Under the pieces are notes generated by a model, which was given only the letters and a program-made list of their open reading frames with translations, had not been told where the DNA came from and searched no databases. DNA of 64,000 nucleotides from Bilabrum cf. latius (Eukaryota): the NCBI GenBank assembly GCA_965178125.1, contig OZ237744.1, positions 930,001 to 994,000 of the forward strand. The letters are read 5' to 3'. Below are positions 27-63,655 of the stretch, in pieces; the first letter of the stretch is position 1, and each line of letters starts with the position of its first letter. Position numbers and translations under genes: made by a program.

Positions 27-222
27 CCGTACGTGCCCTGACCGATCGACCGGCCCTGCGTGGTGAACTCTGCTACGTCCCTGCAGCCTTTTCGCGGGTA
101 CCCGCCACCATGCCCGTGGCCGGGAGCTTTGCCCTTCCGTCCAGAAGGAGGGCTTAAAACATGCTACGGGAGGCTGGCCCCTGCTCCAGAGCTCGCCGCA
201 GGCGCCCACCCCGATTGATTAC

Positions 223-290
<68 letters not shown>

Positions 291-643
291 GTGGGCACCA
301 TAGGCTGCCCAGGACCCGACGGCGGGTTGGATGCTATAGACTGCTACTTGTCGGTGCCCTTCGAGGCTATGGCACTTGACTTGGCCGCTGTCGGTTCATG
401 CTAGCCGCCTTGCTGCCCGGCCGCTGTCTGCATGGACGATGACGATGACGAAGCCGATGCAGATGAAGAGTTGGTCGACTGTGGCATTACGGGTGCACCA
501 CCAGTGCGTAAGGCACCCGTAGATGCTGCAGATCTGCCTGTTACCCCGCCTTGGACGTTACTGGATGCCGAAGAGGGGCCAAACGTAGCACCAATTGATT
601 GCACTGTTCCAGCCTCAGAATTCGAGCGCTGCGCAGTCGCCAT
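27..643 (-). CDS. Cyclin-dependent (CMGC) protein kinase, first coding exon; gene continues off the left edge
   Basis: ATG at 643 with an in-frame TAA upstream. Reading through TAG at 401, 344 and 164 gives a low-complexity/poly-Ser N-terminus and then GCRDVAEFTTQGRSIGQGTYG, matching the CDK9/10/11/12-type GCRxVxEF...IGxGTYG glycine loop. A GTGAGA donor follows at 26. Confidence 0.8.
224..286. repeat. (GCT)21 trinucleotide microsatellite, poly-Ser in the kinase frame
   Basis: Perfect tandem GCT run, read as AGC codons on the minus strand. Confidence 0.95.
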
Positions 644-1198: not shown

Positions 1199-3654
1199 AT
1201 GGATGGGTTCCTCGGGAAAGCCGCGGAGATGATGGAGGCAGCGTGAGCTGGCTACTTGTTGTGTCACCCCTGTCAACCATGGCGACAAGTGGAACGCTCA
1301 ACGCGTTGCCCATCGCCATATTCGTGTCTGAACGCATAACTGGCTCCTGTTGGTATTCCGTGGTACCGTACGAGTCTCACTGGCTTCGATCGCTCCATCG
1401 CAGTAAGAACGCCTTGCAAAACAAGACCGAGACTGAGATCAAGCTAGACAAAGCTCTTAGCAAGGAAAAGTAGGGCAGTGATACTAAGGAGCTTCTCTAG
1501 ATTGCCAGGCTGACACATGACTACGCTGAGCGCAGCGTGATCTTGAACAGCGTCTGGGAGGCAATGAACCATGCTGGCAAGAACTGGCTCCAAATTTTCA
1601 AGGCCCTGAACCTTTTGGAGTTTCTGATCAAGAACGGGGCCGAGAGGGTTATCGATTAGGCGCGCGAGCGAATGTTTCGAATCCGCACCCTTCAGGATTT
1701 CGCGCACAGCGAGGACGGCATCGACAAGGGCGCAGGCAGTGAGTGTATCTGCTTGAGGGGATAGCAAAGATGCGTGCAGCTCCCATATACTGCATCATAG
1801 ACTCTTTCCGCTCTGCCTTTCCGCCCCAATTTTCTCTGCTACTCGCAGTTCGGAAGAAGGCCCGGGAGCTGGTTGAGCTGCTGCAGGACACCAAGAAGAT
1901 CCGCGAGGAGCGCGAAAAGGCCCGAAAGCTGATGCAGCGAATTCTCGGGGGATCGGTAGGGTCTGGTCACGGTAAGTTCCTCTGAAGAAATGCGATACCT
2001 GTGCGCTACACGCTCACCCGGTCGACGCTGACTTGTCGGCAGCATTTGTGAGAAAAAAATGCCTAGTCTAACCCTAACCCTAACCCTAGTCTCTCGCGCA
2101 GCTGGAGGCGTAGGCAGCATTCGTGCTGGTGGCTCCCGTGGGCCACGCTATGGCGGTGCGGGCGGGCACTCCCGCGGCCGGTCCGGGATGGGGTCGGGGT
2201 CCTCTGGTGGTGGGGGCTTCCACGACACCGGCTCGCCAGTGGCGCGGTCCCGTGGCAGTGCGGAGCCAGGCCGCTCGCGACGAGACGTTCGGAGGGAGGC
2301 AGAGGATGACGACGACCTGGAGGCCACCATGCGGGAGCTGGAGGGACGTTCGGGAGGGGGAGGCAGGGGGAGAGGACAGAGGCGCGGAGGTGGCTCTGGC
2401 GGCGGAATTGACATCCAGTTCGGTGCCATCGGCACCAGTGGTGGGGGTGCCGCTCGCAGGGATGCGCCGTCGCCAGTGAGTGGTGGTGAAGGGGGTGCTG
2501 CCAGCGACGACGATGAGGAGGACCTCTTCGGCGGGGATGCACCACAACCCCCTGCGGCTGCCCCCGCGCAGAGCGGCGGCAACGGCGACGATGACGATGA
2601 CTTCAACCCGTTCGAGGAGAGCGGGGCGGGCAATGGGACGAGCTCTGCACCTGCTGGTGGTGCGGATGGCGACGATGGAGACGACTTTAACCCGTTCGAA
2701 GGCGGTGGATCAGGCGACGCAGCAGGCGCGACGGGAACAGGCGCACAGCGTCAGGACGACTCGGCCGACATCGAAGCCCTGCTGATGGGTGTGCCCTCCA
2801 ATGGTGGTGCCGCTTCCGTCCCAGCGGCCCCTGTGCAGCGCCAGGATTCATTCGATCCGTTCGCGCCCGCCGGCGGTGCCCCTGCAGCTGCTGCATCGGA
2901 CCCAACCGACGACTTTGGAGGATTCGAGACGTCTGCCGCGCCGGTGCCCGCTGCGGTGGCTGCTTCGTCTGGCGGGGACATGCTTGCCGCAGAGCCGACT
3001 GGCCCGCAGGATCCTGACGACGACCTGCTCAGCATGGACGTGGGCAGCTTGTCTGCTTCCAATGCTGCGAGCAAGTCTGGCGCTGCTGCTGCCAAGGCGG
3101 CATCAACGCAGAGGCAGCGTGGCCGACCAATGGGCATGATGGAGGCGCACAAGACGAAGCGAAGCACGCCTGTGATGCGGCAGCCGCCGAGCACGACTGG
3201 GGGGGCTGGGGTGCCGCCACTTGGTGGCGGTCCTGGGATGGGCGCACCTGTTGGCGGCATGATGCGACAGGGAGGAGCTGGGGGCATTATGCAGGGTGGT
3301 CCTGGCGGGATGATGCAGGGTGGGGCCGGTGGCATGCCTGGCATGATGCGCGGTGGCATGGCACAAGGGGCCATGATGGGATCTACGGGAGGTATGCCGG
3401 GTGGCATGATGCGGAGTGGAATGCCGATGCAAGGAGGGATGATGCCTGGAATGCAACAGCCAGGAGGCATGCCGGGCGGGGGTATGATGATGGGAGGCCC
3501 TGGCCAGTCTCATATGAGTATGCCAGGGACAATGGGAGGCGGAATGCAGTTTGGATAGAGACCTGGTGGGATGTCGTCAATGGGAGGTCCAGGCTTTCGT
3601 CAGGGTGGCGGAGATATAATGGGTATGGGTCAGCGAAGACCGATGGGGAGCTAA
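1199..3654 (+). CDS. Epsin/EpsinR-like ENTH-domain protein (~684 aa); exons 1199-1242, 1404-1738, 1849-1971, 2102-3654
   Basis: ENTH motifs KNWLQIFKALNLLEFLIKNGAERVI and DKGAGIRKKARELVELL, followed by DLF, NPF and DPF motifs and a Gly/Met-rich tail. Three phase-compatible GT-AG introns. TAG read through at 1471, 1498, 1657 and 3556; ends at TAA 3652-3654. Confidence 0.92.
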
Positions 3655-3765: not shown

Positions 3766-6700
3766 TCATACCTGGTCTTCATCAGACTCAGCTCCTGCAC
3801 CGCCCTCTGCGGCGCCGGCTGCCGAGCCAGCTCCTTGGCCATCGCTAACTGCCACTCCGGCCCCGCGCTGTACCGACTCGTACGCAGACATCCACCGCAA
3901 CCGCGAGGAGAACTCAGCAGTGGCCCCGGGCTCGCTGCCAAAAAGGAGGGGGTCCGCAGGAGATCCGGTGCGAAGCTCGAACTTGAACGACACCCCCCGC
4001 AGGGTGACTGCAGGCCGGACTGCCGAGCAAGCAGCCGGGAGGCTTGACCTGCTGCCAACCCACTCGGTCCTCATGAGGCACATAGACTTCTCTTCGTCAG
4101 TCAGGTCCTCGAAATGCTTGCTACCCCCATCTGCATCGCTCTGAGCTGGGACCACCTGGTAGTAGCACGTGCCCGAGCTAGTGTCAAAGGCGCAGCGGAT
4201 GAGGTCGCCCTTCCCGATCTCCATTGATGGCACCGGACGCACCACATCCCCCCCATGGATGACTGCCCTCCGCCTTACCGACAGCCCGATTGAGTTCATG
4301 TCGTCACCGATGCCGTGATGCCCGGCGGCGAAGCCAAAGAAGCTACCTGCGGCCCAGCCAATGGCAGCCGCCCCTTCTTCCAGCACCCTCAGCTCGTACA
4401 CCACGATACCCCCGCTGGCGCGGTCCCGTGTCGGCAGCGAGACCATGCCAACCAATATGGTTGGGTGCTCCTCATCTCCTGTCGGTTCATCAGCCGTGGC
4501 ATCCTCGTCGCCACCGCCGAAGCGGTGCATGTGCCGGCGCTGGGCTCGTCTGCGGTGTCTAGTGGCCTGTGTCACTCGGCTCTGCAGCGCTTCAGACATT
4601 GCCTGCTCTGGGTTCTCCGCAAGGTCCACGCCGGAACGACTCGCCACGGTGCCCTTGTCCTGGTTGATCTTCACGATCGTGCCGCACTGCGCCCCGGCAA
4701 ATAGAGGCAGCCTCTTGCCACTCTCCACGTGTGCCTGTATTTGTGGTACGCAGCCGGCGTGCGACTCCGCACGCATGAGTTGTGGCGGCGTCGACAGCTC
4801 AATATCGACCGACGAAGCCGAGGCCGGGTCATCGCCGTCGGCACTCGCCTTGGCCGCGGCGGCTGCAGCCAGCTGCTTTTCGTACCCACGCACGAGCGAA
4901 GACCTCGTCCCGAGCTGTCTCTGGTACGCAGCAGATCGCTCCACGATCCACAAGCCGACAGGTTTGTAGCTGTCGCTAGGTGGAGCATGCTTGAATCTCC
5001 GCTGCCCGATGTTGAATCGGACGGCCATTGGAGCGTGGAGAGTAACCGCGGGGGTGAGCCCCATTGGGCCTGGCCGCACGTTGTGGTACGCGAGGCCCCA
5101 CGGGCCGTCCCACTTGCCATTGAGGCCCATGCTGATCGTGCCTGTGCTCATATCGATGCACACTCCGATGGTGTTGCCTGGGGACGCCCAGTCGGCACCG
5201 AACCCCGCAGTCGCACCCACCATCGGGAAGGGTTCCACCTCGTTCGAGATGTCATCCAACTCGAAGTCAGCACCGCCTTCGGCTTCATCATCTTCGTCAT
5301 CGCCATCATTCCCGCCAGCGCTACCACCAGCTGACACGCTCTCGGCCTCCCGCCGTGCCCTCATGCCTTCGTTCACCTGGCGCTGGGCCTCGTCGTACTC
5401 CAGGCCAGCAGCAAGGGCGGCCGCAAGCAGACTCGACCGCTCCTCGTCATCCGCTGCACGGCGGGCAGCCTCCTCCGCGGCCCTAGCAGCGCGCTGCTCT
5501 TCCGTCATCGCCTCGGCTGCAGCTCTGCGGGCGCGCGCCAGCTCTCTGGCCTAGCGTCGCCGCCTCCTGTGCACGTCACGCTACATCTGCGCCATGTCAG
5601 CGTCCGTCGGCGTGTGACCGAAGAATTTCGAGAACGCACGGATGTAGACGTCGGGATGATACGCCTTGAGCATGGGCAGGTGCGCGTGAGTGACAGGCAG
5701 GTCCGTCATCCGGAGCCGCTCACCGTACTCGGCCGGGTGCGAGAGGCCGTAGAGCAGCCTTCCGCGGTTGCCAGTGATGTTGTCATTCACGGGGCCGCTG
5801 TGGTCTCTCGCAGCAAACCCGACCTGGACGAACGATGGAACCATGGCTTTGCAAATGGCCTAGGATTCCTCCGACATGGACACTTTCAAATAGCGCCGGG
5901 CCACTGCTTCGGTAGAACTCACGTGCTGAGCCAGCGTGCCCTCGCATGCCATGGATTCTGCACGAGACATCATGCCGGCACCGACGGGATCCAATACATC
6001 TACCTCGAAGTACCACTTGCCGCGGTGGATGGCAATACCTCGAAGTTCTGCTGCACCCACGAGACCGACTTGCGTGGTGGCCGCGGAAGCATCGATGAAA
6101 ACAGAACCATCGGGCCGTGTCTGCACGCCATAGCTGCCCTGGGCAGCGATCGGCTGACCAGCTGCAAGCCCAACAGCGCGCACCAAACGTACCTCGCGCA
6201 GCCGCTCAATTTGGCGGTACACAGACCCGGCAGTGCGGAACGGCGGGTTGTACCGGAAGGACGCATCGCCGAAGTTGAGCTCGAGGGAAACGGCCGCGTC
6301 CATGCTCACAACTGGCAGTACACCCTCCGTGCCGGACAGCACGAGGCACACACCAGCCAATTCTGCTTGCTCATCGTCTGACCCAACCTATCTGCGTGGG
6401 CACCCTTCTGGAAGATTGCCACACGTGCCTACAACAGAACCGTTCACAGTGAACACGGCAGCACCGTTCGTGCAGTCGAAGGCTGCCCCAATCACATCGC
6501 CAGTCTTCCAGACTATGCCGGCCGTCTGCACGTCCTCCGATGCTGCCACTGGAGCCAACTTGCGACCAGCAACCCACACGCAACCATCGGCACCAAGCGC
6601 AACGCCACTATCCTCCCCTCCCATGCCAGCGCCGATTCCAGTCCTCACGCTTCCCTTGAAGCTCGCCAGCGCGAACCCTACGGTTCCGCAAGGAAACTCG

Positions 6701-9700
6701 CTACGATCCGTTGCTGGGACGGCCGTCGCACCGGCTTGCGGCGGTAGGGCATGACCACCAGCGGAGTTGCACCGGATCACTGTGGCCTCGAAGTAGTGCA
6801 TGCCAGAATCCGGGGCTAGCACAGTGGCACGAGGAGCAATGGTCACGCAAGAACCCCGAAGATTAGGCGAGCTGACCAAGACCCCGCCGCGCACCAGCGC
6901 AGGGCCTCCCGAAGTAACCAGCGGCTCCCCGATGTCCCACTACCGCCTGGCCTGCAGGTGCAGGGCATCCTCACCAGCGTACGTGCCTTGCCGTTCCAAG
7001 GGCGGAGCCACGTCGCCTTCTGACTGAAAAGCACCACCACCAGACGTCAGCTGCATCAGCTCCTTGGGTCCGGCCGCCTTGCCCTGCCTATTGAGCAGGT
7101 CCTCAAGGGCCCTCTGCGCCTCTTCCTCAGCGCGAGCATCCTCCTCACGAGCATCCATCGCCTTATTCACCGCAGCGAGGTACCTCGCAACCCGGCGCGT
7201 GCTCTTGGCAGACTCCGAATCGGTCTGGTTCAGCACGTTGAGCTTCTGCTCCCTCGGATCCGGAGGAATGAGGGTGGCCGTAAACAGGCTCCTCGAGATG
7301 AAGCCAGCACCGTCAGCAGATGCTGTGTGCATCAGCAGCTCTGCCACCTCCTCCGGCTTGATCTCAGCAGCAAGCAGGCCCAAGATTGCCCGCTGCAGGG
7401 CAGAGGGAGGCAGATAGTTGCTCCCGCTACCGAAGCCGAGGCCCTCGAGTGCAGCCGTGACGCCACCGAACTGCCTGGCGAGTCCCATTCTGACTCTGCT
7501 GGCAATAGAGCGCATGCGAGAAAACTGTTCGCCCTCGCGCTTGGACAGAGCAGGGGAGATCGGCGCAACCTCGTACCCGACAGTTTCACGTCGCCTCTTC
7601 GTCTGCATCCTGGAGAAAAATGCAGCGCGATCCTCTGGGCTGCTTTCGGAGAGACCAGCCATGAGATAAGCCAGCTGCACCTCCGTGTAGGCCACCTGAA
7701 GGTCGAAGTACCGAGCGGATTGCGTTGGGAGCTCCCACTTGTCGACCCGAGTCAGCCCGACAACGCGACCCTTCTGCACCGCGAGCACGCGATCATTGTC
7801 CTCTTCAGCGGTGGCACTTGCGCTCCCGGCAGCTGTTGCTGAGGCTGCATCAGGCGTAGCGGGTGGCTCCGCGCCTGCTGCTGCCGGGGCACTAGCCTCA
7901 GCGCTCGTGCCAGATCCAGCAATCAGCGCGAGACCCTCTTCCTTGCTTGAGAGTACTGAAGTCTCCTCCACCTGTTCCTCGAACTCTCCCTGAGGGTGCC
8001 TTGGGTCGTCAGTGCGCTCATCCAGAAGGCGACCATCCGTCGTCCACAGCTGGACTACGGCAGCGTGGAGCGTGGATCCGGTCCTGGTAACGTCTCTCGC
8101 ATCGATTAGGAACGGGTTGCGAAGGTGCATGGCGCGTCGAACAGCCGCCGCCTCTTCCAAGTTGATCGTCGCAAGGCACCAAGGCTTCTCTTGCTCCGGC
8201 TGCTCCGATGCAGGAACTGCACCGGAGCCGTCTGCAGCAGGCTCAGCCCACACGGCGCGGCTCACGCGGGCACCGACGGCAGTCTGGGTGGCTCCACCCG
8301 TCTGCTCGGTATGTCTCTCCTCGTCCTCAGAGTCGCTGTCGTCCTGGTCGCCCCTCAGGTGCTCGGGCAGCACCCGTGCATTGCCGCTAGACCCTGCCGG
8401 CTTCCATCGCATGATTACGACGACGTTCTTGAGTGGCCACATGGGCATCGTGTACACGAAGCTCGTGGGCGGCGTGTGGTTCCAAGTGCTGTACATGGAC
8501 GTGGGCAGGTTCACGTTCTACATGTCCTCCCACAGCCTGATGTCCTTGGTCAGCAGCCACTCGGAGCGTTTGACCACGACGTGCTTGCCCATTGTGCCGC
8601 GGTCGTCCGTCGCCCCTTCGCCGCTCGGCGCGGCCATTGCATACAGCGACCACTGACGAGGGTTCTTGGCGAAGTCACGGTCGGCACCGGCCCTCACAAC
8701 TTCCTTCTCGACCTCCTCCTCCTACTCCTGTTCCTTCTCCTGCTGCTTCTCCTGCTGGAGCTCCTGCTCCTGCACGGTCTCCGTGTCCAACGCAAGCGTG
8801 CGGGCAGCCGCAAGCTCGGCCTCGTCACCCTTCTCGGCCTCGGCGCCCACGGAGGACGGGTCGTCCCCGAGCGCCTCCTTCCCCGCTGCCTCACGCTCTT
8901 TCTTGGCCAGCATGGCCGCCTTGCGAACGTGCTTAACCTCGGCAGACGCAATGATGCCGATGTCGCGTGCCGCAGCGGCCGCCTCCTCCATGGCGTACTT
9001 CACCCGTGCCTCTGCCTCGTGCCCAGTGACCAAATCAGTCCACTTTTGCAGCTCGACCTGCAGCCGCTCCTTGAAGCCGACTGGCGGGTCGATGGTCCCT
9101 GCCACGTCAAACCGCAAGGGGTCAAGGTACGCCTGCACGCAGCGTGAGCCTCTCTTCTCTGGACCAAGCTTCGCCACGATGGCCGAATCGTCCAAGCCAA
9201 TCGAGGTGAGAGTAGATACCACACCGCCGGACATCTTGGCAGCAGCGTCCGGGTCGCTCTGCGCTGCGCGCAGCGCATCCGCAGGAGCAGCTCGTTTCAC
9301 CGTGCGCGCGACCTGCATGCGGCTGTACAGCTCCTCTTGGTCGGGGAGAGACTCCACAGCAGTTGGCCGCTGGAATCGAGTAGTAATTCCCTTCGTGCGG
9401 ACTCCAGCCACAAGTCTTCGGATGTCTAGGCGGGCGATTGGCTCCTTGGAGATGGCAGGGACCCTAAGGGGCACGCTCTGCGTCTGCTGCACGGGCCACA
9501 TGGATGACCTGCGTGCTGGCAGCTTGTACGGTTCAGCCCACGGGGCGACGAAAGCGGCAACCTCTACGCCCTGAGGGGCGCTCATGGCTTGCACGTCACG
9601 GATGGCCGCGCGCCTCCACACGGCAGAGAGGTGCTGCATGGTAAGCTGCATCCTCTGCATGTGCTCCGAACGGATCGAGTTCGTGACAAGCCATGCAAGG

Positions 9701-12700
9701 ATGTCCGAAGTTAAAGAGTCGGTGGAGGCCACCGCCCGGATAAGTCTCCGCACCTCAGGAATAGCGATGATGCTGAGCCTCTATCCGCGCTCCAGCCCAC
9801 GCATGCGCCAGCAGCCCTGCGCATAGTCGCGAAGGGTCATGTCCTTGGACAGGGTCACGGCCGCCCTGGCGTCAAGGTTGAGCTTGATGTCCTGGCCCGT
9901 TGTGTGGTACTAATCGAAGAAGACAGAGTAGCTGACCGGGTCAAGACCGCAATCGGCGAGATCCACGACCCTACCAGTCGACCGCATCACGCACTTATGC
10001 TTGCCCGTTTCGTCGATAAACACGCAGCCCTCCTTGCGCCTTAGACCAGACTTGAGCAGGAATCTGGCCGTCTCTTCGTTGGACATGCCAGTGATCAGAG
10101 CCCCAGTGTCGATTAGCGCGTCAAAATTGGCCTGCGCGACCTGGACCAAAAGCCCACGGACGGACCAGTCGCTCAGATCACCATCGAATGGAGTGGTGAT
10201 CCTGGGGTCTGCGAGGATTCGGAGGATCTTGGCATCGCTGCCGGGCTCGTACTCGCACAGCATCCCCTGCGGCAGGATATTGGATGGCGTTCCGCTGAAT
10301 GCTGCACGCCGCAGGAAGAGCGTGTCGCCGCACACGTCCAGTCCAGTCGCAGTCAGCTTCGTATGCTGGTGCTGCATCACTGCGGGGAATACCATCCGCC
10401 GCAGGTAGTAGAGGATCACGCTAGGGCTGGAGGCAAGCACCGCGTGGATAGCCTGTAGCTGGGTGTTGCTCGCCATGTCAACCAGCGGCAGAGGTAAGAT
10501 TCCCTTGGCGTTCGCATGACCCTCCTCCAGCCAACCCTTGTCAAAGGTGCCAGTCAAGACCTCCATTGCAGTGGCCTTGGATGAGCCCTGGGTCCCTTGC
10601 CGGAGTGCCACCTCCCCTCCTTCCTCTGCCTTGGACTCCGATTCGGTTGGTTGTCCGCCACTGGACCCTCCGATATCCTCGAGAAGGGCCTGGGCGGCCG
10701 CGGGAACCGCGATACCCTCATCATCGAGAGTGGGATCGGCACCCGAGGCCTGCCTCGACAGAGGCGCCACATCGTCGCTGGCCCCGCCCGAGGCCAGGTC
10801 CAATGACATTTCGCGCCTTGTGATTGCGAACGGCAGGCGCCTACCGCCTCCATCTTCATCATCGCTGTCGTCGTCGTCGTCTCCATTCGAGAGACCCAGG
10901 CTGGGCAACCGAATCAGCTCAGCAAGGGCGGTCGGCCCGTCTCCTCGACCAGCGCCAGACGAATCCAGGCCTTCCTGGTCGTCAAGGCTGTTCGTACTGG
11001 ACTGCTTTCGGGCAAGCTGCACGATCTTCATGCCATCGGCGGCGTAATCACGCCTGGCCTCCTCAGCGGAGGCAGCCTCATCCAGCCACTTCTGGAAGAG
11101 TCGCGCGGCCGGCCTCTCCTCTGGCCTGCCCGTTTCTCGAGATAGATCCGACTTGAGGGCCTGTAGCACTGTAAGCATGTCCATGTATCGCATGCCTTCG
11201 TACCGGTATGCCATGACCGCAAGCCCAATCTAAATGTCAGGGTGGGCGAACTCGGAATTCTTGGAGGGTGTCTCACGACCCACAAAGGGAACGGCAAGCA
11301 CCGCGCGCGAGGTGGGTAGCCCTCTGGAGTCCTTCTGCCCAAAACCCGGGTCGCCCTCGTGCAGAAGCCCGTAAGAGACGCGGTCCACCCTCGAGAAGTA
11401 ATGCGGTGCAAACAGGTTGCAATGGTCCCTCGCAAGGTTCAGCAGCTGGATCGTGTAGGCGGAGCAACTGGCGCGGATGTTAGCAGCTTGCTTGCTGCTT
11501 GCCCCTGCCTCGCCGACCATGAAGTCCAGAGCGTTGCTGCAAAGCTCACCGTCAAATGCCCACTTCTTCCTGTAGAAGTCTCTCGTTTCCTCCAAGTCAT
11601 CCGCAGCGCTGTCGTCATCGGCACCTGCACCTGACGCAGCACCGCCTGCCTCCTTGGATTCGGACGCACCAGTTGAAGCCTCGGCGGCCTCTGCAGTCTG
11701 GAAGTCCTGCTGGACACTTTCCTGCTTGAGAAGCCACATCATGGTCCACTTCGCCACAGGCCGCTTCAGCCTAGTGTGCCACAGGATGGGGTCCAGGAGT
11801 GTGATGTGGGGAGTGGTCTGGATGGCAAGCATGGCAATGCCACGACGCAGCTCGTCCCGGAGCTCGATCAGGATGTCTGCCGGCGTGCAGGGACCGCTGC
11901 CCGGACCACACGCGCCAGGTGGCAGTTCTCTCGGCCCGCTTGCCTGAGCGCGACGCCGCTGCTCATCCTCGACCTACTTTCGCTGTTGCTCCGCCTTCCT
12001 GCTCCTCTTCATCTCCTCGGTGACGGTCTTCTTGCCCTTCTAGCCCCGCTTGCGTCGTTTCTTCTTGCCTTGATGCTCGTCCATTCCAGGCGTGGCCGTG
12101 TGGGCCATCTCGTTCGCCTTCTTGATCTCCTCAGTGGGCTCGACGTGCTCGTTGCTTTCGCCCGGCACCTGCGGCGGTGGGCCTCCCGCGGCCAGCGTCT
12201 CGGGTGCACAGCACGCCAGGAACCCGCCGATCATGTGCATCGGGAGGTTCCACCGGTCTGGGCTCATGGCTAGCGGGTCCTTCTGCCCGACGGGGTAGTT
12301 TAACTCGGACTTAAGAGGGTGCATACACACGTCGATCTCGTCGATCAGAGCGCATCCCCGCGACCGCTCGCCCCAAAGCGACATTAAGTCACGAAGAACA
12401 TCGGCAAGTGCATCTAAGGCCCGGACACGAACAGCTTCCTGATCCACTTGCCACCTGAGCTCACCGTCCATGATCGTCTCGGGCGGGATAAATACGTGCG
12501 GAGGGGCTGCGCGCACCTGCTGCAGCAGATCCATGTACTGCAGGAAGGCAGACTTGATGCTCTCTGGAGTGGCAGCCACTACGTTGCCTGTATCTCTCGC
12601 CCAGCGGAGGCGGTCCACCTGCCGCTGCAGGTGCGACACCCAGCAGAGAATCTTGTCAACGGCAGTGGCCGTCGCATTTGCGTTCCACCCGCGCACCGTC

Positions 12701-40300: not shown

Positions 40301-40439
40301 CACTGCCGCGGTGCTGAGGGACGCAGCGGCCATTTCAGAAGCAGCCAAGCAATCAGCTCGCTTAAAGCGAGTCGAGGCGGTTAGAAAAGCGGCTCGGGGC
40401 GAGACGGCAGGGGTAGGGGGGACACCTAGTGGCAAGTGA
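37350..40439 (+). CDS. Hypothetical protein (~1,029 aa), disordered N-terminal part and C-terminal coiled coil
   Basis: ORF fragments at 37383, 37737, 38109, 39624 and 40014 share one frame and are joined by 11 TAGs; stop TGA. The C-terminal third is E/K/R/Q-rich. Confidence 0.75.
39381..39428 (+). repeat. (CAGCAC)5 Gln-His repeat flanked by CAC-TAG-CCC-CAG
   Basis: cac tag ccc (cag cac)5 tag ccc cag. Confidence 0.85.
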
Positions 40440-45300: not shown

Positions 45301-45444
45301 TTGCGGGCCAAATCGTCTTCTCTGCACTGTTCGTGCGAAGGACGTGGATGAACACACCATCCTTGCAGCAGCTGCCCACTGCCTCCCACCAGCTCGAATA
45401 ACATCACGACAATTGCGACCAGCACATCGCACTGATGCTCTCAT
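42376..45444 (-). CDS. MIPEP: Mitochondrial intermediate peptidase (peptidase M3A, ~1,022 aa)
   Basis: Arg-rich presequence-like start, DMLSDLVCRVCDSAE, YLDLFHRQGK, zinc motif FHEYGHALH, DFIELPSHLFE, FGHVVNYGAGYYSYLY. TAG at 44875, 43537 and 42883; stop TGA. Confidence 0.93.
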
Positions 45445-45554
45445 GGGTTCGATACTAGACAATTTGACGGAATCAGAGTTGTTCGATTCGGAGCCGGCGA
45501 TCACGGTGGACCAGTAATTTCAGATTGGCGCTTGCATTGCTTGGATTCGCATCG

Positions 45555-51348: not shown

Positions 51349-51409
<61 letters not shown>

Positions 51410-52962: not shown

Positions 52963-55229
52963 ATGGCCTCCGCGTCTGGATCGCGAGTGTCTGCCGGCAA
53001 GTGCCCCGTTCTGTTTATTGGTAAATCTCATTCATTGCCACTGGTGACACCAGAGTTCCCTGTAGCTCTGCAACCTCAGGGAAAGTCGGGGCAAAGATGC
53101 ATGGACTCGATCTTTGAAGAAGTCTCCAAAGCAGGGGTTACAAAGGAGCAATGCTACGTTCTTACTGACGCTCTTCATTACAAGAATTTTGAGCGGTGGG
53201 CAGTTTCGCATGGGCTAGGTGTTGATCACGTAATCAATAGCGGCCGTACCCTCGCCGACAGCAGGTGAGGCACTGGCGACGTCGTACGCAACCCAATAAC
53301 GACCCTGGTGCATCCGGCATCGCACCTTGCGACTGGACGCTCATGCGTTTACGTTTTATTCGCAGCTGCAGCAAAGCTGATTTGCAGGATGCCCTCGCAA
53401 GGGGTGATGTGTTTGGCTCAGGGGTTACGGTGGTTGCAGCCGACGCGCTGCCGGCCGAAGCTGGATCTCTGACATTTGCCATCGGCACCCTTCGTTCCGA
53501 TTTGACGAGAACAGCCGTGCTATCTTGTCCCACCGGACGCAAGCCGGGTGCTCCAGAGAAAGAAGAGGGGACAGCCCCCCGCTGCTTCGCGTGCTCGGCG
53601 CCCGGCCAGCCCGGGCTGCTGTCCGCCCTCTCCGCGGAGAGTCCATCCGGCGCAACTTCCGAGGCAAGAAGCTGCCCCGTCGTGTTTCATTTGAACTCGG
53701 GTGCCTGCGCTGCGCTGGCCGCGGCCAGTCGGGCGGGTGGGCGTGCTGCTCCCACGGGTGCAGCAGGGTCTGCATGCGACGACGGTGCCGATGGACCGGC
53801 GACAGGGGCCGGTGGTGGTGCTGCATTCGAGAGCGCTGCAGGTCGCGTCCCAGGGCCCCTCTCAGCGATCGCTGAGCTGCTGAACGCCAAGGAATGCCCT
53901 GTGTCTCTCCTCGAGACGGAGGCCCCCGTCCTGTCGCTGGGCGCCATGGACGGCACTGTACCCACCCTGGACCCAAGCCCAGCGGGCACTGGGCTCATGG
54001 TGCAGACCCCGCCACCAGGGAGCGTGCACGCCCGAGCGCAGGCACGGGTGGGTCTCATGGGGAACCCTTCGGACGGATACAACGGGAAGAGCGTTTCGCT
54101 CACGCTGGAGAATTTCTGGGTGGACGTGTGGGCCTGGCCCTCTGCCACGACCCGCATCCTGCTGCACCCCCTGTACGACCCCATCGAGTTCAGGTCGCCC
54201 GAGGAACTGGTGGCCATTTCGAAGAGAGAGGGCTACAGCGGGGGCACCAGGCTTCTCATGGCTGCCATCTACAGGTTCTACCGCCAGTGCCAGGAGCACG
54301 GCGTCAAGCTAAGGGGAGACGCGGGTGTCACACTCAAGTATCACACCAATGTGCCGAGGCAAGTTGGACTCGCGGGGTCCAGTGCCATCATCACCGCGAT
54401 CCTGCGCGCACTCGCTGCCTTCCATCGGATCGACACGGACGAGCGGCTGGCGTCCGCTGGCCTGTCCAAGCCAAAGATGCCTGGGTTCGTGCTGGCCATC
54501 GAGAACGAGGAGCTCGGCATCAGCGCTGGCCTGCAGGACAGGGTCGTGCAGTGGTACGAGGGTCTCGTGCACATGGATTTCAACAAGGATGCCATCGATA
54601 GCCTGGGTCACGGGACGTACACGAACCTGAGCACCGGCGTGCTGCCGCAGCTGTTCCTGGCGTACGCCCCCGATCCCTCGGACAGCGGGCGCATCCACAT
54701 GCCGATCCGCAAGCGTTGGCTAGAAGGAGACAAGGAAGTTGTGGCTGCGATGCAAGACATCGCTTCGAACTGCGACGCAACCCGGGAGCTGCTGGCAGAG
54801 GCTGAAGCTAAGAGCACGCCCAAATCAGTGGTGGCCCGCAAGCTGGGAGCGCTTGTCCGGCGCAACTTCAAGGGAAGGCTAGACCTGTTCACGGCCCCTG
54901 CTCTCGGGGACGTCAACCTGCAGATGATCGGCATTGGGGAAGGCCTTGGGGCGGCTGCCAAGTTCCCCGGGTCGGGTGGGGCTGTGGTAGGAGTTGTTGA
55001 TGCGATCGGAATGGCGGCCAAGGGCTCCATCGACTGGGCCGAGGGCGCGGCGATTGCGGACACCGACCTTGCCTCGGTGGCCAAGGAGGTTGTTGGGTAT
55101 GCTGAAGCCTCCGAGCGGGCGCTGGACGCACTGAGAGTGGCGTATTAGGCCAAGGGTTTCGTTTTCGTACCGATTGTACCTCATGGCCCGACGGCCGGTG
55201 GCGGAATGGGTCCCGTGGAGATCGTGTGA
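52963..55229 (+). CDS. Glucuronokinase (GHMP family) fused to an N-terminal nucleotidyltransferase-like region (~721 aa); exons 52963-53264, 53366-55229
   Basis: ARVGLMGNPSDGYNGK, TNVPRQVGLAGSSAI, AGLQDRVVQ, SDSGRIH, AKFPGSGGAVVG; N-terminal HYKNFERWA...VINSG. TAG at 55146 is followed by the expected GFVFVP; stop TGA. Confidence 0.9.
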
Positions 55230-55271: not shown

Positions 55272-57371
55272 TCATCCGGGCCTCCCATGCAACTTGCGTC
55301 CAGCAGGCTGCCCGCCCGCAGCGCCCTAATAACCTGACCCAGCGATCGCACCACCACCCGCACCCGCGATCCACGGCTCCAAGTAAGATTCCCTACCCGC
55401 CGCACCGATGGCCCCGACCATGCTGTCTGCGTATCCGGTGGCCATCGAGACCTCCGCGGCTCCAGCCTTCGCGGCTCCCCGCCCGATCGCTTGCGAACTA
55501 GATGCCCTCGGCAGCGTGCGTGACTCAAGCTTGGCTATCACCTCGGACACCACCTTCGCATCCGCTAGGCTGTCCTCATCCTCGTTCTCGTACGCCTGCA
55601 GCTGCTCGTAGCTTCGCAATAGCGCCCCGTGCAGGTCCTGGATCTTGCGCGACTGGTCCGGGTCCCCGAATCGCGCTGCCAGGCTCTCTGGGGTCTGCTG
55701 CAAGTGCACCTGTACCTGCAGCCGCTGGATCATTTCAAGCGTCACGGACATTGTGGCTCTAAACCGGAGCTGGTCCACGGAGCCCTCCGCAAGGAAGTAC
55801 GAGTGCGCGAATGACCAGCACATGGCCCTCCGAGCTGCCTTGATGGTCGCCAGCATCGAGTTGATCTGGTCCGACACGCGGGGTCCGAGCAGCTTGGCCA
55901 CGGCCGCCTTGTACTGCTTCGGCATGGCTCGCACGGATTCATCGAAGTTGTCTCGGTGGATTGCGAACCGCTTGCCGTACCATCGGATCCTCTCTTCGCT
56001 CTCCACCATGTCGGTCGGACTCGACAGCTCGGCGAACGCATCGGGGGCCTTATCGTCCGTGTTGAAACCTCGGTCCGTACCATCACCGTAAATATCTAGG
56101 GTGGACCAGTCAAATGATGTCCCGCACATTGCGCAAGTGACAAAGTCGCAGCCGCTAATCTTGGTGCAGATGGCACCGCAACCCCTCCATGGGCACTTTT
56201 TCGTGTTGTGCATGGACAAAACCGTTCTATCTGCCTGCGAGTCGCGCCACTTGAATTCGCCAGTTGTCAGCATTTTGGCCGCGTCCCCGATGCTGGTATC
56301 GTACCCCACCGATGTCTCGTATACTTTCACTCGTAGCTTCCACAGCTGAAAGTGCGCGCACCGCATCGGGGCGTGGAACACCTTGTGGCACCCAAAGCAA
56401 TACTCCCTGCCGCAGGTACAGCGCACCCCGACGTTTCTTCGCGTTCCCGCTGCTGGCCAGTAGCTGCGCAGCTCGCACTCCCTGTTCGGACACTCCGTCA
56501 CTAATTGATTTCCCCTCTCGAATCGCCTTGCCAGGATGCTTCTGCACACCTGCAAGTCCTTGGGGGTCAGGAAGTCGGAGTATTGCTAGTAGGCGAGCGG
56601 TTCCGTGCACCCGTGCTGAGGGCATGTGGGGGTAGTAGTCATCGAGGCGGCCAGCACACCCAGGCAGGTCTGCACGTGAGCCCCGTAGCAGTCTCTGCAG
56701 AACCAGTGCCCGCATGCCATGGCATACGCAGCTGCCTCGGTCTCAAGCATGTTGAAACATATCTCGCACATGAGCTCGCCCCGGGCAGCCGCATCTGCAG
56801 GGAAGGAGGACCGGTGCCTAGCTCCAGCGGAATCTGTCCGGGTCAGCTCCCCGGAGAGTGGCACGCCGCTGGCGCTGGTAGTGCCAGCAGCAGTGCCAGC
56901 AGCTGCTTCAGTGCCCTACTCGTTGAACACTGGTTCTATGAACGTCATGTGGAGCTTCCGTTGCAACTACTCTTGCCCCTCGACCGTGCCGAGCGTGCTG
57001 GTCGCCATGTCAGCATCCCAGCCCACTTCCTGCAGAACCCGATCTGCCGCCCCTCTCGTTACGCTGCATTGACTACTTAGCTCTGATACCATTGATAGCC
57101 TTATGTTTGCGAGCTCATCGAGCGAAACGGGCGTGGGTATGGCATCGTTGGCGTCCAGCTTAGACGCCAGCGATGAACTTCCTGCACCACTTGACGCGCC
57201 CGAACCTGTCGCAGCCCCGTAGCTTATTCCCGGTATAGACTCATGATGGGCTGCCAGCGCCAATCCGCCAGCTGCAGCAACACCCGCCTTCTCCATGTCG
57301 GCTTCAAGATCTATGCTATCATCCTCATCGTCCTCAAAGTCCCAATCGTCGTCCTGTCCAGAGTCTGACAT
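55272..57371 (-). CDS. Ariadne-like RBR E3 ubiquitin ligase, paralog 2 (~699 aa)
   Basis: Same architecture as 32269-34422. TAG at 56967, 56916, 56586 and 55326; first TGA at 55272. Confidence 0.88.
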
Positions 57372-57532: not shown

Positions 57533-58652
57533 ATGGAATACACGGATGAAATGTTTGACTTCTCACTGTTTGATAAGCCATCAGTTAGGGCTGAGGTCCC
57601 GGGTACGGATCATCTAGAGATCGAAGTAAGTGCTCAGCCGCAAGCAGTTGCGGTAGTTCGTATGCAGTGGGCATACTGTTGAGTCGGCTCTCATTGCACT
57701 AGTCTTGCAGGACTTCAAAGATGTGTACGAGCCCGCCGAAGACACATGGTTGCTTCTAGATTCGCTAGCATCAGAGCTGTCGTCCGATGAGTTGAACGAT
57801 ACCAGGCTTGCCCTTGAAGTTGGTCCAGGATCAGGTGCAATTTCCGCATACGTAGCTCGGGAGTTTGCCTAGAGCCACAAAGCCGCGACTAGGGTGCCTG
57901 TTGCAGTCCTGTGCTGCGATCTGAAGCTGGATGCATGCCAAGCAACTCTGCAGACATCAACGGGAGCTTTGCGGCGACTTGAGCACGCTGCAGTCGCGTC
58001 TACATCCACCGTTGAAGCCACTGAAGCAAGTTGTGAATGCAAATCGCTTTCTTCTCATGCTGAGTTTGATGTCATCCTGCCATCGTTGCCGGAGCCCTCT
58101 ACAGCGGCAACTGGCGGTGCTGCTGCTGGAGCGGGCAGCGCATCGTTACCGTCAGCGGTGTCGCCCTGCTGGCGAGCACCCCTCGAGGTTGTGTAGGGTG
58201 ATCTAGCGTCATGCTTGCTGCCTCGCCTGGCTGGTGCGGTCGACCTGCTGCTGTTTAATCCCCCGTATGTGCCCTCCCCTGAGCACGAGATAGGAGCTGA
58301 CAAGGCCGCGGCTGCATGGGCAGGGGGCCTCCACGGCCGCCAGGTAATCGACCGGTTCCTTCCCATCATGGCAAAGCTTCTATCTGCTCGCGGCAGGGCG
58401 TACGTGGTGCTAGTGCGGGAGAACAAGGTGGGAGAGGTGGCGAGGGCGGGGCTCGCGCTGGGCCTCAGCTGCGGCCGAGTGGCAGGCACCAGGGCAATGA
58501 ACGAGAGACTCATGGTAGTCAAGTTTCAGAGAATCGAAGGGGGAGAGAAGACGATGGGAGGTGCGGGCGCAGGTCCTGGCCCGCACGAAGGTGCAGGTGC
58601 AGAACGTGGTGCAAGTTGTGCAAGTGAGGCAGCAGCTGGTGGCGCTTCCTAA
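57533..58652 (+). CDS. N6AMT1: HemK2/N6AMT1 (Mtq2) eRF1 glutamine methyltransferase (~344 aa); exons 57533-57625, 57711-58652
   Basis: VYEPAEDTWLLLD, LEVGPGSG, DLLLFNPPYVPS, AWAGGLHGRQVIDRFL. Intron GTAAGT...TTGCAG. TAG at 57870 and 58194; stop TAA. Confidence 0.93.
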
Positions 58653-58732
58653 CGATCGCATTGTGACAGCGTTAGACTTGCAACGAACCCTCTTGGCTTG
58701 AAGGAAGGATTTTCATGCACATCATGTTCCTG

Positions 58733-61700
58733 TCAGTTTCCCTGCCGGTTCGCCAGATACAGCGGTAGTTCCAGCACTGCTGTTGGCCCGGAAGAATCAG
58801 CCCCAGCCTCCACTCGGATATCGTATCCACCAAGAGGGCACAGCACCTCGAGGGCAAGCTGCACCCAGGCCCTCCCCTGTTCCCCATGCTAGCCTTCTCC
58901 GCCTGGATGCTGCCCATTAATGGATCGAGCCACGCGGGATGTCTCCTCGACCGATGCTGCGAAGCTCATCTGCCCAGCCGATTTCAGGGCACGTTTCGCG
59001 CTCAGACGCCACCTCTCGTCCTCTTTTCTCTGGGTAATGTCTGCTTGCACTTTTGCTACCCCCGTCAGAGCCGAGCTGCCGGTTGCTCCGCCGGGGCCGT
59101 CTTGACCATCCTCTGCTGCGGCACTCGAGGTTCTGTCGCCGTGGATGGCGCGTAAGTCCACCTCACCACGCACCGATTCTTGAGTCACCTGCCATATCTT
59201 GCAAACCACGGCCTCGGGTGCAGCAGCTGCCGATGGAGGCGCCGCGTCTCCGGTCACTAGCCGCGTCGCAGCGCTGTCCAGCGAGCCGGCATACCGCCTC
59301 TGGTCCAGCGCGAGGGGCTGCAGCAGAGACGCGACGGGCTCGGTCATCATGCCAGTAGAGTGGGCAGCGGTGAGGGCTGAGGCGTCAGGCACGGGACAGT
59401 CCTCCCGCGCAGCAGAGCCGAGAAGGAGGGCGGCCTGCACGCCCAGGCAAGCAGGCAGCTCGGGTTCGATTGGCCGTACTCTACCGTGCTAGTGGGCGCG
59501 GAGGCGCTAGCTCACAGGCAGCACATCCACTAGCACGATCCCACGATCCTGACCGATAGGCTTGGTTGTTACTAGCACCTGCAGCTCTACGGCTCGCACT
59601 TCAACTTCGCCGACTGGTCGAACGAACACCTTGAGGTTCTTGAACCCGGACAGCTAGGGCATTTTCCGAGGTCTGCAGGCTTCCACTAGCTTCCTATGCT
59701 GTTCAGCTGCCTCCACTGCATGCCAAGGCAACACACGAACTGTCGGCACAGCAAGCCCGGACTGGTCGACTCGCAGGGTCTGGCTCCAGCCAACGCCGAC
59801 TACTTCCACCGCGATTGCCCGGAGCTTGCTCCACTGTGACGCAGCATCTTGAAGGACCCACCTGCAGGCTGCTCGAAGCGTCTCCTCGCTCAGCTGACCG
59901 CCCGATGCGATTGCAGCAGCTGCAGCCCGAAGCCTGGCGCTGTCCTCACTGCGGTCCTGTGACTCCATGCGCGACCGCTGCTACCGCTGGCGGGCGAACC
60001 ACGGGTCCAGGCTTTGCTTTCGAATCGTGACATCAATTGATAGCTCTGTATAAGGTGTGGTGTTGCTGCCGGATGCAGACCCTGCGGGCGATGGTTCGTC
60101 CCAGTCGGACCACACGGCTCCAACGCACTCGCGTCCATCGAGGCATGCCTCGAGCTCCTCGGCACGTAGATCGGGCTGCACGAGCAGCACCCGCGCGTGA
60201 CACTTTCCCTCAATGTGCGGAGGAATGTGCAAGTCAACTTGCACCGTGTGCTCCTTGCCAGCCTGCCACATGCACACGTCGTCCTCTGCTAGCGATCCTC
60301 GCCGGCGGCTGGGCTGGCCTGCCCGTTGCTCCGTTGATTTCGCGTGCCGATACGCCGCTTGGGCAGCGTCATCATCCCCCCAGTGGAGTCCAGTGATTTG
60401 TGGGCCTACCCCAGGCGTGCACTCGGCATCCGCGCTTTCGAACGTGCAGACGGGTGCATGTGGCGTGCCATCGCCGTCCAGTTCAGGAGCATCGCTCAGG
60501 CCAATACTCGGGTGCTCTAGTGCTGCACGTCCCATATGGGCCACTCCGCATCGAAATTCTCGCTCTGCCGCGACGCATGCCGCCAGCAGTCCCGCCGTCT
60601 GTACGGCGGTCTGCAGCAGGTTGGAGTCATCGCTGAGAGGTGGTAGAGCACGTTGTGCTGCACCAGCCACAGTACCATGACCACTCAGTCCTAAGGATGA
60701 CCTAGCTCCCGACTCGGCCCCTTCACTAGCTCGAACCTCCCGACCAGCCGCCGCGCTATCCTGTGACGCCCCGCCCACCACTTTCGCTGCAGGCAACACA
60801 ACACCGAGAGATGCCAGATCGAGGCATGTCGAGGCCTCCAGCGAGGCTCCTAGCTGCCTGCCAAGGTCTTCGGCCTCTTGGATGCTCACTGTCGCGCGCC
60901 CCCAGTGAGAGAGAGCGGCGCTGCGCCGCAACTGCGCTGCCCACTTGCCCGGACTCGCGCCAGACAGAGCTCGTTCGAAGGTGTGCAGCGTGTCTCTGCG
61001 TACTGGCGAAGCCTCTGCAAGCAGCTGCGGTCTCGAAATCGTACTGGACATCGCGTCGAGCCGATCCAGAGGCTGCTGCAAGGACCGCACCGTGTCGTGA
61101 AAACGAAGGGCCCCCAGTTCTACTTGAGCGCGCACACGCGCAGTCCGCCTGCCCTTCCTCCACTTGACCGCTTGAGAGCCCTCAACCTCACTAGAGCTTG
61201 ATACAGAGCTCGATTCGGGTACATCTAGACCCGATTCACCCAGCGAAGGGAAGCCATGAAGAAGCTGCATCGTCGCCTGTAACCCAGCAAGAGCCAGGGC
61301 AGGCTCGCCGCAAAGCCAGGCCAGCAGCACAAGCTGTCGCAGCGCGAGGCTGGCTTGCGCTGCCTAAGCGCTGTTTACCTGGCCGGTGCACGGGCAGTGC
61401 GGGGCGAAACATCGCCTGATTGACACGTCGATACCAAGCAGACGCACAACAAGCAGAGAGAGCGGCACTAGCACCGCTAAATCCTCGTTCGCGTCTGCCT
61501 CTTCCCAGGGTGACGACAGGCCGGGGCTTGCATCGTCTGCGCAAGACGCTGCTGCCTTTGGAGACCCGACCTTCGCGGCGTCTGATCCACTGGATCCGGC
61601 TGCCTCTTTCGCGTCTTCCTTTGAACCGCCAGCGCTGCCAGAGTCCACGCGGGCTCCCACACCGGCCCCCAGACCGAGGCTGGTGAAGAGGTCACGCACG

Positions 61701-63655
61701 CTGTCAGGGGCAGCTGCTGCTTCTTTGGACGCGGCATGTGACGCGCGCCCAGCGACCGCTTGTGCTGCGCTACCTGCGGCAGATGACTCGTGCAATCCGG
61801 AGGGCACCACTTGGCTGCCAGACGCCTGGCTACCCATCCACTCGGACAGGGCCCCGTGGAGCAGGACCGCCCTGTCGTGGGACAGCCTGAGCAACCCATC
61901 AAAGTCAAATACGGTGTTTCCCGAGGAAGCTAAGCCTGCTGTGATGGTCGACATGAGCACTTCGGCCGCAGACGCGTCCAGACCAGCCGATAGGAACGCC
62001 CGGGCGGTGCGGCAGGCCACAGAGGCCATCTCCTCCACTGTCGTGAAGGTGACTGCCGACAAGTTTCGGGCACATCGGGCCGCTCGACCCACCCTGGCGC
62101 ATTGGGTGCTCTCTGCAGCGCGCTCTTCGGCATCATCTTTCGTCTCTGGCCTCGGTTCAGTGGATCGGATGCTCTTGAGGCCGCTCTTGTCCTCCCATAC
62201 CTGCAGTGCCCTCCCGCCCACCTCGACTGCCCTGACACGGGCGAGGCACGCGCACCCCGCTGCATGCGCGGCAGGCGGTACGGTGTCTCTGCCGCGATGC
62301 TCGCTGCGGAACAGAGCCCACCAGCTGGGCTCAATGGTGGCGAGCGTCGCGTCTGCCAGGGTGAGCGCCAGAGTCTGCATGCCAAGGAGGGGCACGTGCT
62401 CTGAAGACTCCACCAGCTCGATGCACTCGAGGCACGAGGGACCCGGCAGGTCTAGGCGGTCCACCCACAGCGCCGACACGCCTTCCTGCCCTGCCTCGAC
62501 GATGGCCTGCGCCCGCCACCCGTTGATCCTGGCCGCGGCAAGGTAGCCCGGCGACATGCCAAGCGCGTCAAGCTCGAGAGCCTGCCTGTACATCCGGAGG
62601 GCGTCCTCGCCGGCACCCATCAGTAGCGCGTTGTCTGCCTGCTGCACCAACCCGCGAGCCGCGAACCCAGCCTTCACGTCTCGGCGCCTGCGGAACCTAT
62701 CCGACGTCAGCGGACAGACGTCGTACCCTCCGTGCACCACAGCGGCGCAATCCGTCGGGTCCGTCCCCAGGGCCCTGATCCGCTCCACCCTCAGCTCCAG
62801 GATGCTCTGCACGAAGCCTGCCAGGACCAGGTGCAGCACCTCGGCGTCTCGCTGCAGGGTCTGTTCCCCAGGGAACTACTGCTGCAGCGCGGCACTGCTA
62901 GTGGAGGCACTCCCTGCGCCGGGTGCCCCGCCATCGAGGCCGAATGCGGCGTCCTCCTCCTCAGCGGTCTGCAGCCTGGCTGCCTGGCCGGCGGTCGACT
63001 TGGTGTACTGTGCATATGATATGTAGTCGCTCGTGGGCGGCTGTGCACTGGCTTGCTCCGGGGTTGTGTCCACAACCAGGCAGTGCGGGCGGATGCCAGC
63101 GAGTGCTGCTGGACCTCGGAGCTGCGCGAGGCCGTTCGGACCGGATGGCTCGGAACCATCGGTGTCAAATAGGCGATTTGCGAAGTCGCACGCCCAAGGC
63201 GAAGCGAAAAAGCTGTCAATGGCTGCGTTGAGATCTTTGACGCGGGGAGCATAGCACACGCCAAGCACCCCAATAAAATTGTCCTCCTCTGGCCAAGGAG
63301 CATCCTGAAAAGATGCCGATATAGGGCCAGCAGAAACTGCAGACTTGCCTGCTGATTGTCCGTCTTTCCATTTGTGCAGGAACTTGCATTGCGACTGAAT
63401 CTGTTGCGCAAATCGAGCCGCCATTGTGTGAGTCAACGGGACGAAATCAATCTCCGTGTTCCCCTCAAACCCATTATATTCTGACAGTGCAGGCACTTTA
63501 TCTGGACTCAGCCCTATGTTCTCGTTCGGAAACGTGCCAACTGCATCCAAAAGACGCAAGCACCTGACTGGAATGTCCGACCCAACTGGTACCACCAATA
63601 CTCGGTTTCGAGGGACCCACGAGCGATTCGGCGATTCAGATAACGAGGACTTCAT
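58733..63655 (-). CDS. TRAPP II subunit TRAPPC9/Trs120-like protein (~1,640 aa), divergent
   Basis: One frame with 7 TAGs; stop TGA. RVLVVPVG, FIGVLGVC and ARGLVQQADNALLMGAGEDALRMYRQALEL resemble the Trs120 N-terminal and TPR-like segments. Confidence 0.65.

Follow-up and report, generated by a model that had tools for sequence, protein, structure and literature searches.

A 64-kb stretch of nuclear DNA (the window: positions 930,001 to 994,000 of contig OZ237744.1, assembly GCA_965178125.1, Bilabrum cf. latius) appears to come from a GC-rich, gene-dense and intron-poor eukaryote that reads UAG as glutamine (Gln) and terminates translation only with UGA, in most genes, and UAA. We put the probability of this reading at roughly 0.9. 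The guanine plus cytosine (GC) content is 61% overall and stays at 59-66% along the whole length of the window. The genes are eukaryotic and tightly spaced, both strands are used, and the introns are few and 110-170 nt long. An earlier reading of the same letters, here the original prediction, had claimed that UAG is a sense codon for Gln while UAA and UGA remain stops. That observation is confirmed by the present analysis and the interpretation placed on it is supported. As read from the sequence, the code fits the pattern of NCBI table 15, the same table as that of the fornicate Iotanema.

In an open-frame scan of the window, no stop-to-stop frame exceeds 758 codons when all three standard stops apply. 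Once TAG is taken as sense, frames of 7566, 2299, 1671, 1060 and 1047 codons open up. Taking TAA alone as sense leaves the maximum at 758 codons, and taking TGA as sense lengthens the frames only diffusely, as expected for GC-rich sequence. The frames opened by TAG have Pfam domains plus long homologs, which bears out UAG as a sense codon. Fifteen genes were delineated, with limits set by ATG starts, coverage by Pfam matches or homologs, and RNA contigs (Table 1). The largest encodes a giant protein with DUF3638, DUF3645 and SPRY domains in one uninterrupted frame of about 22.7 kb, and its homologs are 2,827-6,215 amino acids long. This single 22.7-kb frame holds 28 TAG and no TAA or TGA, which excludes pseudogene decay.

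In-frame TAG codons number 89 and occur in 13 of the 15 genes; only the purine nucleoside phosphorylase (PNP) and polyubiquitin genes lack them. The starting figure is 86 TAG, counted over 15 coding segments that add up to 18,697 codons. Two of these were removed as lying in a predicted intron of the epsin-like ENTH gene, one each was added for exon 1 of the WW-WW-PH gene and exon 2 of the purple acid phosphatase (PAP) gene, and three were added for a methyltransferase-like gene. The 18,697 codons contain neither TAA nor TGA in frame, and both remain at zero in the approximately 19,000 codons of the 15 genes. The two other frames of the same coding DNA hold 5.8 TAG, 2.9 TAA and 17.9 TGA per 1000 codons. 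The frames were first found as open reading frames bounded by TAA or TGA, and the zero is meaningful only because the gene ends were fixed independently by ATG starts, Pfam matches or homology, and RNA contigs. The giant gene is the clearest such case, running from ATG to TGA through 7,555 codons.

Every one of the 15 genes closes with TGA (11) or TAA (4). Both codons remain stops, and UGA is the main terminator in the window. The original prediction had counted about 93 TAG in 15 of 17 genes, 12 of them ending in TGA and 4 in TAA. Its count of TAA ends stands, its other totals differ little from those given here, which replace them, and two of its genes were not delineated. It had also placed TAG codons inside conserved domains, as is found: at least 13 fall in Pfam-matched stretches. 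These are three in ENTH, four in WD40, two in the RING and IBR domains of the first of two Ariadne-type RBR E3 ligase genes (RBR1 and RBR2), and one each in DUF3645, Metallophos, Peptidase_M3 and WW. TAG makes up approximately 10% of the Gln-type codons of the window.

UAG is present in the DNA and in spliced RNA-type contigs. The stretch is found in sequencing runs of three studies. One DNA run (X3) was compared with the window on positions 24001-40500 (16.5 kb), together with X5, X6 and X7, which come from two further studies and are RNA by the guess of a tool. The only base differences listed lie at 25422, 25432 and 25435, in a repeat contig, and none of the four runs differs at a TAG. The listed X5-X7 pieces cover 21 of the 26 TAG codons counted on this segment, with no differences. 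All four TAG codons of the WD40 gene lie within X6 and X7 contigs, and seven of the eleven in a gene for a coiled-coil, low-complexity protein lie within listed X5, X6 or X7 contigs, again unchanged. Two joints appear in the contigs: 29276 is linked directly to 29391 in X5 and X6, and 35437 to 35606 in X5, X6 and X7. These joints correspond to introns with GT..AG ends in the WW-WW-PH gene (29277-29390) and the PAP gene (35438-35605), and X3 is colinear at both places. The reading frame stays open across both joints, and the second eliminates a TGA that closes the unspliced frame. The spliced contigs themselves carry the TAG codons at 37067, 36146, 34790 and 29241. On the same 16.5 kb, the runs X1-X7 hold identical DNA under three coded organism names from three studies, and the organism may be co-cultured or contaminating in some of them.

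Relatives of the window genome share the signature. A representative protein search recovered short proteins that represent pieces of RBR orthologues. P0048 is 92% identical to RBR1 and stops immediately short of the residue-229 TAG, and P0049 is 90% identical to RBR2 and ends where RBR2 has Gln. P0051, P0053, P0054 and P0056 have 42-60% identity. The ends of P0048, P0049 and P0054 coincide exactly with a TAG or a Gln of the window genome. A metagenome scan with P0051 gave no match; an alignment of the RBR orthologue fragments recovered the metagenome contigs L001-L003. These have a GC content of 54%, and L002 shares 99.99% identity with L003 across 9.7 kb. With TAG as sense their longest frame grows from 391 to 1,856 codons, and TAA or TGA as sense gives no gain. 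Pfam matches confirm the frames on the three contigs: a P4-ATPase, with 14 + 4 TAG, is accompanied by a beta-carbonic anhydrase, an amidase, a G-alpha subunit, a GH99 endomannosidase and the RBR orthologue. UAG constitutes 18% of the Gln-type codons in these relatives. The methyltransferase-like gene of the window is 50% identical to an open reading frame on L002. From these comparisons the code seems to be common to a whole lineage, within which protein identity falls to roughly 50%. Between close relatives the individual TAG sites change rapidly.

The residue was identified with a test similar to Codetta. Proteins of the window were aligned with X at each TAG, and the log-odds of the column profiles were summed per codon. 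The homologs comprised 11 of the giant protein, 144 of 150 for RBR (six fragments from close relatives were left out) and three of the M3 metallopeptidase. The M3 homologs are only 21-26% identical and none of the TAG columns of this gene passed the filter. A homolog search for the WD40 gene returned generic WD40 proteins only, and the gene was left out. As a control, 57 of the 61 sense codons with at least eight columns were decoded correctly, and the four misses (ATG, ATC, ATA and AAA) were assigned to similar residues. Over 13 columns TAG scored +3.4 nats for Gln, with Ala next at -2.3. The CAA control scored +4.1 for Gln over 15 columns, about the strength of TAG.

Hand-read columns, taken from PDB alignments and from paralogues and orthologues, brought the total to 28. 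Gln then reached +14.0, followed by Lys at -7.5, with Ser at -9.9, Leu at -21.7 and Trp at -32.5. Gln remained first without its four strongest columns (+3.2 against -5.4). It also led among the 15 columns of the window (+8.9, next Asp at -2.9) and among the 13 of the relatives (+5.1, next Lys at -3.0). TAG residues 5508 and 5551 of the giant protein are Gln in 9 of 10 homologs each, and on this alignment we regard the two columns as decisive for the residue. Pairs of related genes agree with Gln as well. The TAG of RBR1 at 33736 is opposite a CAG of RBR2, at the edge of a nearly identical tract of about 130 nt. Within the WW-WW-PH gene, a TAG of the first WW domain is opposite a Gln of the second, and residue 189 of the methyltransferase-like protein is opposite Gln in the L002 orthologue. 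In the relatives, one RBR TAG is opposite the Gln of window RBR1 in 'CWQCG', a beta-carbonic anhydrase TAG corresponds to the Gln of 'GQ.P' in 5 of 5 PDB chains shown, and a P4-ATPase TAG corresponds to the Gln of 'LFEQF' in 2 of 2 P4-ATPases. Recoding of the pyrrolysine or selenocysteine type was considered and dropped, the conserved TAG columns being Gln.

Several observations weigh against the assignment or limit it. The hand-read columns rest on one to five PDB chains each. Most TAG columns are variable, and Gln is the plurality residue in 6 of 28 (0.21), compared with a similar 0.26 for the CAG control. In the PDB alignment the ENTH TAG at 1471-1473 is opposite the conserved Trp of the epsin 'WG' motif. 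Two TAG codons of the L002 P4-ATPase are opposite the conserved Thr and Ser of ATP8A1 and ATP8B1. The G-alpha TAG of the relative is opposite Arg, with Gs as the only PDB chains shown; Gi, Gq and Gt have Gln in this column, which was not counted. Three TAG sites of RBR2 are S, Y and E in the 90%-identical P0049, and one RBR TAG in a relative is opposite Trp of RBR1 and Gln of RBR2. ARAGORN found no tRNA of any kind in the window or on L001-L003, and no eRF1 gene lies within the window. The RNA nature of X5-X7 is a tool guess combined with the reading of the joints, on contigs rather than raw reads. X5 carries the flag 'probably DNA' and contains long contigs. Finally, a set of 15 genes allows occasional termination at UAG. 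To the departures from Gln may be added residue 81 of the methyltransferase-like protein, which is opposite Ser in the L002 orthologue. The GH99 columns are variable in the PDB alignment (N, R/R, L/Q), and a PDB search with the GHMP-kinase-like gene gave no match. The non-Gln columns may be ordinary substitutions. They leave room, as far as alignments can tell, for some mixed decoding of UAG.

If UAG is a dedicated Gln codon, a tRNA-Gln with anticodon CUA would decode UAG and leave UAA unread. The anticodon is inferred because CUA is the only one that reads UAG but not UAA. Such a tRNA would probably derive from a duplicated tRNA-Gln(CUG) through one anticodon change. At the same time eRF1 would have lost release at UAG and kept release at UAA and UGA. 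This machinery is inferred, and the same argument is made for Iotanema and the rhizarian exLh (PMC5304391) and for ciliates (PMC11687900).

The main mechanistic rival is near-cognate decoding after a change in eRF1. Here eRF1 would ignore UAG, and the ordinary tRNA-Gln(CUG), perhaps with other tRNAs, would read it, mostly as Gln. No suppressor tRNA was found in the window or on L001-L003, and the TAG codons at conserved Trp, Thr and Ser, together with the Tyr, Glu and Ser of the close relative at three sites, would be compatible with such loose reading. Near-cognate tRNA-Gln is described as able to read UAG in organisms with the standard code (PMC13192750). However, UAG shares of approximately 10% in the window and 18% in the relatives are uncomfortably high for an inefficient reading. 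Known lineages with UAG or UAR captured for Gln and with sequenced genomes possess tRNA-Gln(CUA), according to the discussion in PMC5304391. We consider near-cognate decoding unlikely, though it fares better than the other alternatives.

A second alternative gives UAG two meanings by context, so that it would specify Gln within a gene but terminate some genes at their ends, as in Condylostoma or Blastocrithidia. The RBR2, PAP and GHMP-kinase genes each have a TAG 19-28 codons before the TGA, which are possible ends, and the sample is small. Yet no gene needs a TAG stop, and the three genes in which a TAG falls among the last 30 codons are close to the two or so expected by chance (at 4.6 TAG per 1000 codons). 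The frame also runs on for 27 codons past the TAG of the GHMP-kinase gene. Dual meaning is judged quite improbable, somewhat more so than near-cognate decoding.

Under the more common UAR=Gln code both UAA and UAG would be Gln, and TAA would merely be rare at high GC. A GC content of 61% does disfavour A-ending codons. The CAA/CAG ratio of the window is 0.243, however, and GAA, AAA and TTA are similar relative to their G-ending partners. If TAA were used like TAG, approximately 21 in-frame TAA would accompany the 86 TAG, and none is seen (Poisson P of about 8e-10). Together with the four genes that end in TAA, this rejects the UAR=Gln code for the window. The original prediction had named frequent in-frame TAA elsewhere in the genome as a possible counter-finding, and within the window there is none. 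As sense, TAA extends no major frame. In the relatives the CAA/CAG ratio is 0.75, yet the large P4-ATPase frame has 14 TAG and no TAA, with the caution that frames were defined by TAA and TGA. This code is given very little credence. Least credible of all is that the TAG codons are assembly or sequencing errors or are removed by U-to-C RNA editing or as introns, a set of outcomes the original prediction had also raised, since four runs from three studies match the window at every TAG on 16.5 kb and contigs spliced at genuine introns retain TAG and are colinear across it.

Reading UAG alone as Gln, with UAA and UGA kept as stops, has been described in few places. The systems named in the original prediction are those found in the literature: Iotanema spirale (PMC5304391) and, among ciliates, Protocruzia tuzeti and two phyllopharyngean lineages (PMC11687900). 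In the accounts cited, UAG alone is Leu in the rhizarian exLh and some ciliates and Ser in Scotinosphaera (PMC11687900, PMC5304391). The UAR=Gln code (NCBI table 6) is given for many ciliates, some ulvophycean green algae, Hexamita, Streblomastix and Amoeboaphelidium (PMC11687900).

Iotanema spirale (Fornicata; Panek et al. 2017, PMC5304391) is the closest parallel in that UAG is Gln and not a terminator while UAA and UGA are stops. Its tRNA-Gln(CUA) is predicted but unseen in that account (PMC5304391), as here. It differs in that UAA is the predominant stop (PMC5304391), whereas TGA ends 11 of 15 genes of the window. Iotanema is also an anaerobic endobiotic flagellate described there from a transcriptome (PMC5304391), whereas the present data are genomic DNA of 61% GC. 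The window also holds the M3 peptidase, a homolog of which is named mitochondrial intermediate peptidase by its source.

The UAG-only Gln ciliates (McGowan et al. 2024, PMC11687900) likewise use UAG widely as Gln and keep UAA as a stop. In them, as that survey presents it, UAA is the stop almost everywhere, and GC contents within the class range from 27 to 54% (PMC11687900). The window, by contrast, combines 61% GC with TGA as main stop, introns of 110-170 nt and a gene of 22.7 kb. The UAR=Gln codes share the capture of a stop for Gln, probably through mutation of a tRNA-Gln anticodon, but in them UAA is sense, whereas in the window it is never in frame and ends four genes. The UAG-only Leu and Ser codes share the uncoupling of UAG from UAA and differ in residue, Leu and Ser scoring far below Gln in the test above.

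The best named matches of the window proteins are Aphanomyces for the M3 peptidase and Bigelowiella for the giant protein, along with Thecamonas and Aphanomyces. PNP falls in a diatom-rich protein cluster. The genome is possibly stramenopile-like, judging from a few best matches, with Bigelowiella as the top match of the giant protein. The polyubiquitin units are exactly 76 codons apart with no extra residue at the junctions. Cercozoa and Foraminifera have an insertion at the ubiquitin junction, which is absent here. No such code was found reported in a stramenopile or any other GC-rich non-ciliate protist in full-text literature searches that covered few of the subscription journals. On the strength of that and of the features unlike those of ciliates, the origin is probably independent of the known UAG-only Gln cases. 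We lean, by a slight balance, towards an unrecognised clade of GC-rich, gene-dense protists, possibly stramenopile, that would have independently captured UAG for Gln and kept UAA and UGA. Its members would be the window genome, the relative with roughly 90% identity and the environmental relatives, whose proteins are about 50% identical.

If this holds, UAG-only Gln would for the first time be seen in a lineage that is neither ciliate nor fornicate. It would also be the first case in which the genome is high in GC and has UGA rather than UAA as main terminator. Neither AT pressure nor a predominance of UAA stops would then be required to uncouple UAG from UAA. Nuclear codes that split UAG from UAA are described as rare, and they test why the two are normally coupled (PMC11687900, PMC5304391). 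A further origin would add a compact high-GC genome that already has genomic and RNA-type data. It would also be a tractable setting in which to look for the tRNA-Gln(CUA) and for the changes by which eRF1 came to tell UAG from UAA. Gene callers with the standard code cut the proteins of this organism at each TAG. The databases already contain such TAG-broken fragments (P0048, P0051, P0053 and P0054), and the genome and related metagenome bins therefore need re-annotation with table 15.

Table 1. Genes of the 64-kb window and of the related metagenome contigs, with in-frame TAG codons and stops.
Feature	Position	Strand	In-frame TAG; stop	Basis or remark
Epsin-like ENTH gene	1279..3654	+	4 TAG (1471, 1498, 1657, 3556); TAA	Pfam ENTH, PDB alignment
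Giant gene, DUF3638/DUF3645/SPRY	3766..26433	-	28 TAG; TGA	7,555 codons; Pfam, homologs
WD40-repeat gene	27093..28901	-	4 TAG, all within WD40 region; TGA	Pfam
WW-WW-PH gene	29145..30860	+	3 TAG (29241, 29922, 30297); TGA	Pfam WW, PH
Purine nucleoside phosphorylase (PNP) gene	31053..32120	-	0 TAG; TAA	Pfam PNP_UDP_1
Ariadne-type RBR E3 ligase gene 1 (RBR1)	32269..34422	-	4 TAG (33736, 33553, 32971, 32941); TGA	
Purple acid phosphatase (PAP) gene	34736..37207	-	3 TAG (37067, 36146, 34790); TGA	Pfam
Coiled-coil, low-complexity gene	37263..40439	+	11 TAG; TGA	
Polyubiquitin gene	40953..42098	+	0 TAG; TGA	Five 76-codon units; repeat reading
M3 metallopeptidase gene	42376..45444	-	3 TAG; TGA	Pfam Peptidase_M3, PDB, homologs
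Armadillo-repeat gene	45555..52367	+	14 TAG; TAA	
GHMP-kinase-like gene	53343..55229	+	1 TAG; TGA	
Ariadne-type RBR E3 ligase gene 2 (RBR2)	55272..57371	-	4 TAG; TGA	
Methyltransferase-like gene, NPPY motif	57630..58652	+	3 TAG; TAA	Orthologue on L002
Gene of unknown family	58733..63655	-	7 TAG; TGA	1,640 codons
P4-ATPase	L002 2206-7773	-	14 TAG, no TAA	1,856-codon frame
Orthologue-like pieces of three adjacent window genes	L003 3-956, L002 8349-9404, L002 9238-10242	+		

The three orthologue-like pieces on the metagenome contigs are the C-terminus of the 1,640-codon gene (readable on L003), the methyltransferase-like gene and an RBR C-terminus. This arrangement hints, from the alignments, that the gene neighbourhood is conserved between the window and the metagenome contigs. 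The methyltransferase-like protein has 'VYEPAEDTW' near its N-terminus in addition to the NPPY motif, and the gene gave no Pfam match at E<=0.01. It may be related to glutamine methyltransferases of the HemK2/Mtq2 type, for which eRF1 is the substrate. Some homologs of the giant protein are labelled 'ubiquitinyl hydrolase 1' by their source.

RBR1 and RBR2 are 41% identical overall, but the tract of about 130 nt in the RING1 region has only three differences. It lies at about 33740-33871 and about 56674-56805 on the minus strand and ends at the TAG/CAG pair. The pattern suggests recent gene conversion between the two RING1 tracts.

The polyubiquitin gene was identified from the 76-codon spacing of its ATG codons and from the repeat, which is also visible antisense, without a Pfam match. 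It uses 25 CAG, no CAA and no TAG, and its GC content at third codon positions is 0.90. The two genes without TAG, polyubiquitin and PNP, are those in which codon bias or depth is strongest. Such an absence would be expected if the tRNA that decodes UAG is scarce and highly expressed genes shun the codon.

The exon structure of the ENTH gene is predicted rather than derived from RNA, and its putative intron at 1739-1848 contains two more TAG. A telomere-like (CCCTAA)2 with a partial unit lies at 2072-2083, in an apparent second intron of the same gene. Upstream, at 224-286, 21 GCT/TGC triplets form a run near the start of the window. Translated, it gives poly-Cys or poly-Ser, in frames that may or may not be coding. 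The spacers between divergent genes are short, with 55 bp between the ATG codons of the PAP and coiled-coil genes (37208-37262) and 110 bp between those of the M3 and armadillo-repeat genes (45445-45554). Convergent genes are separated by 43-280 bp.

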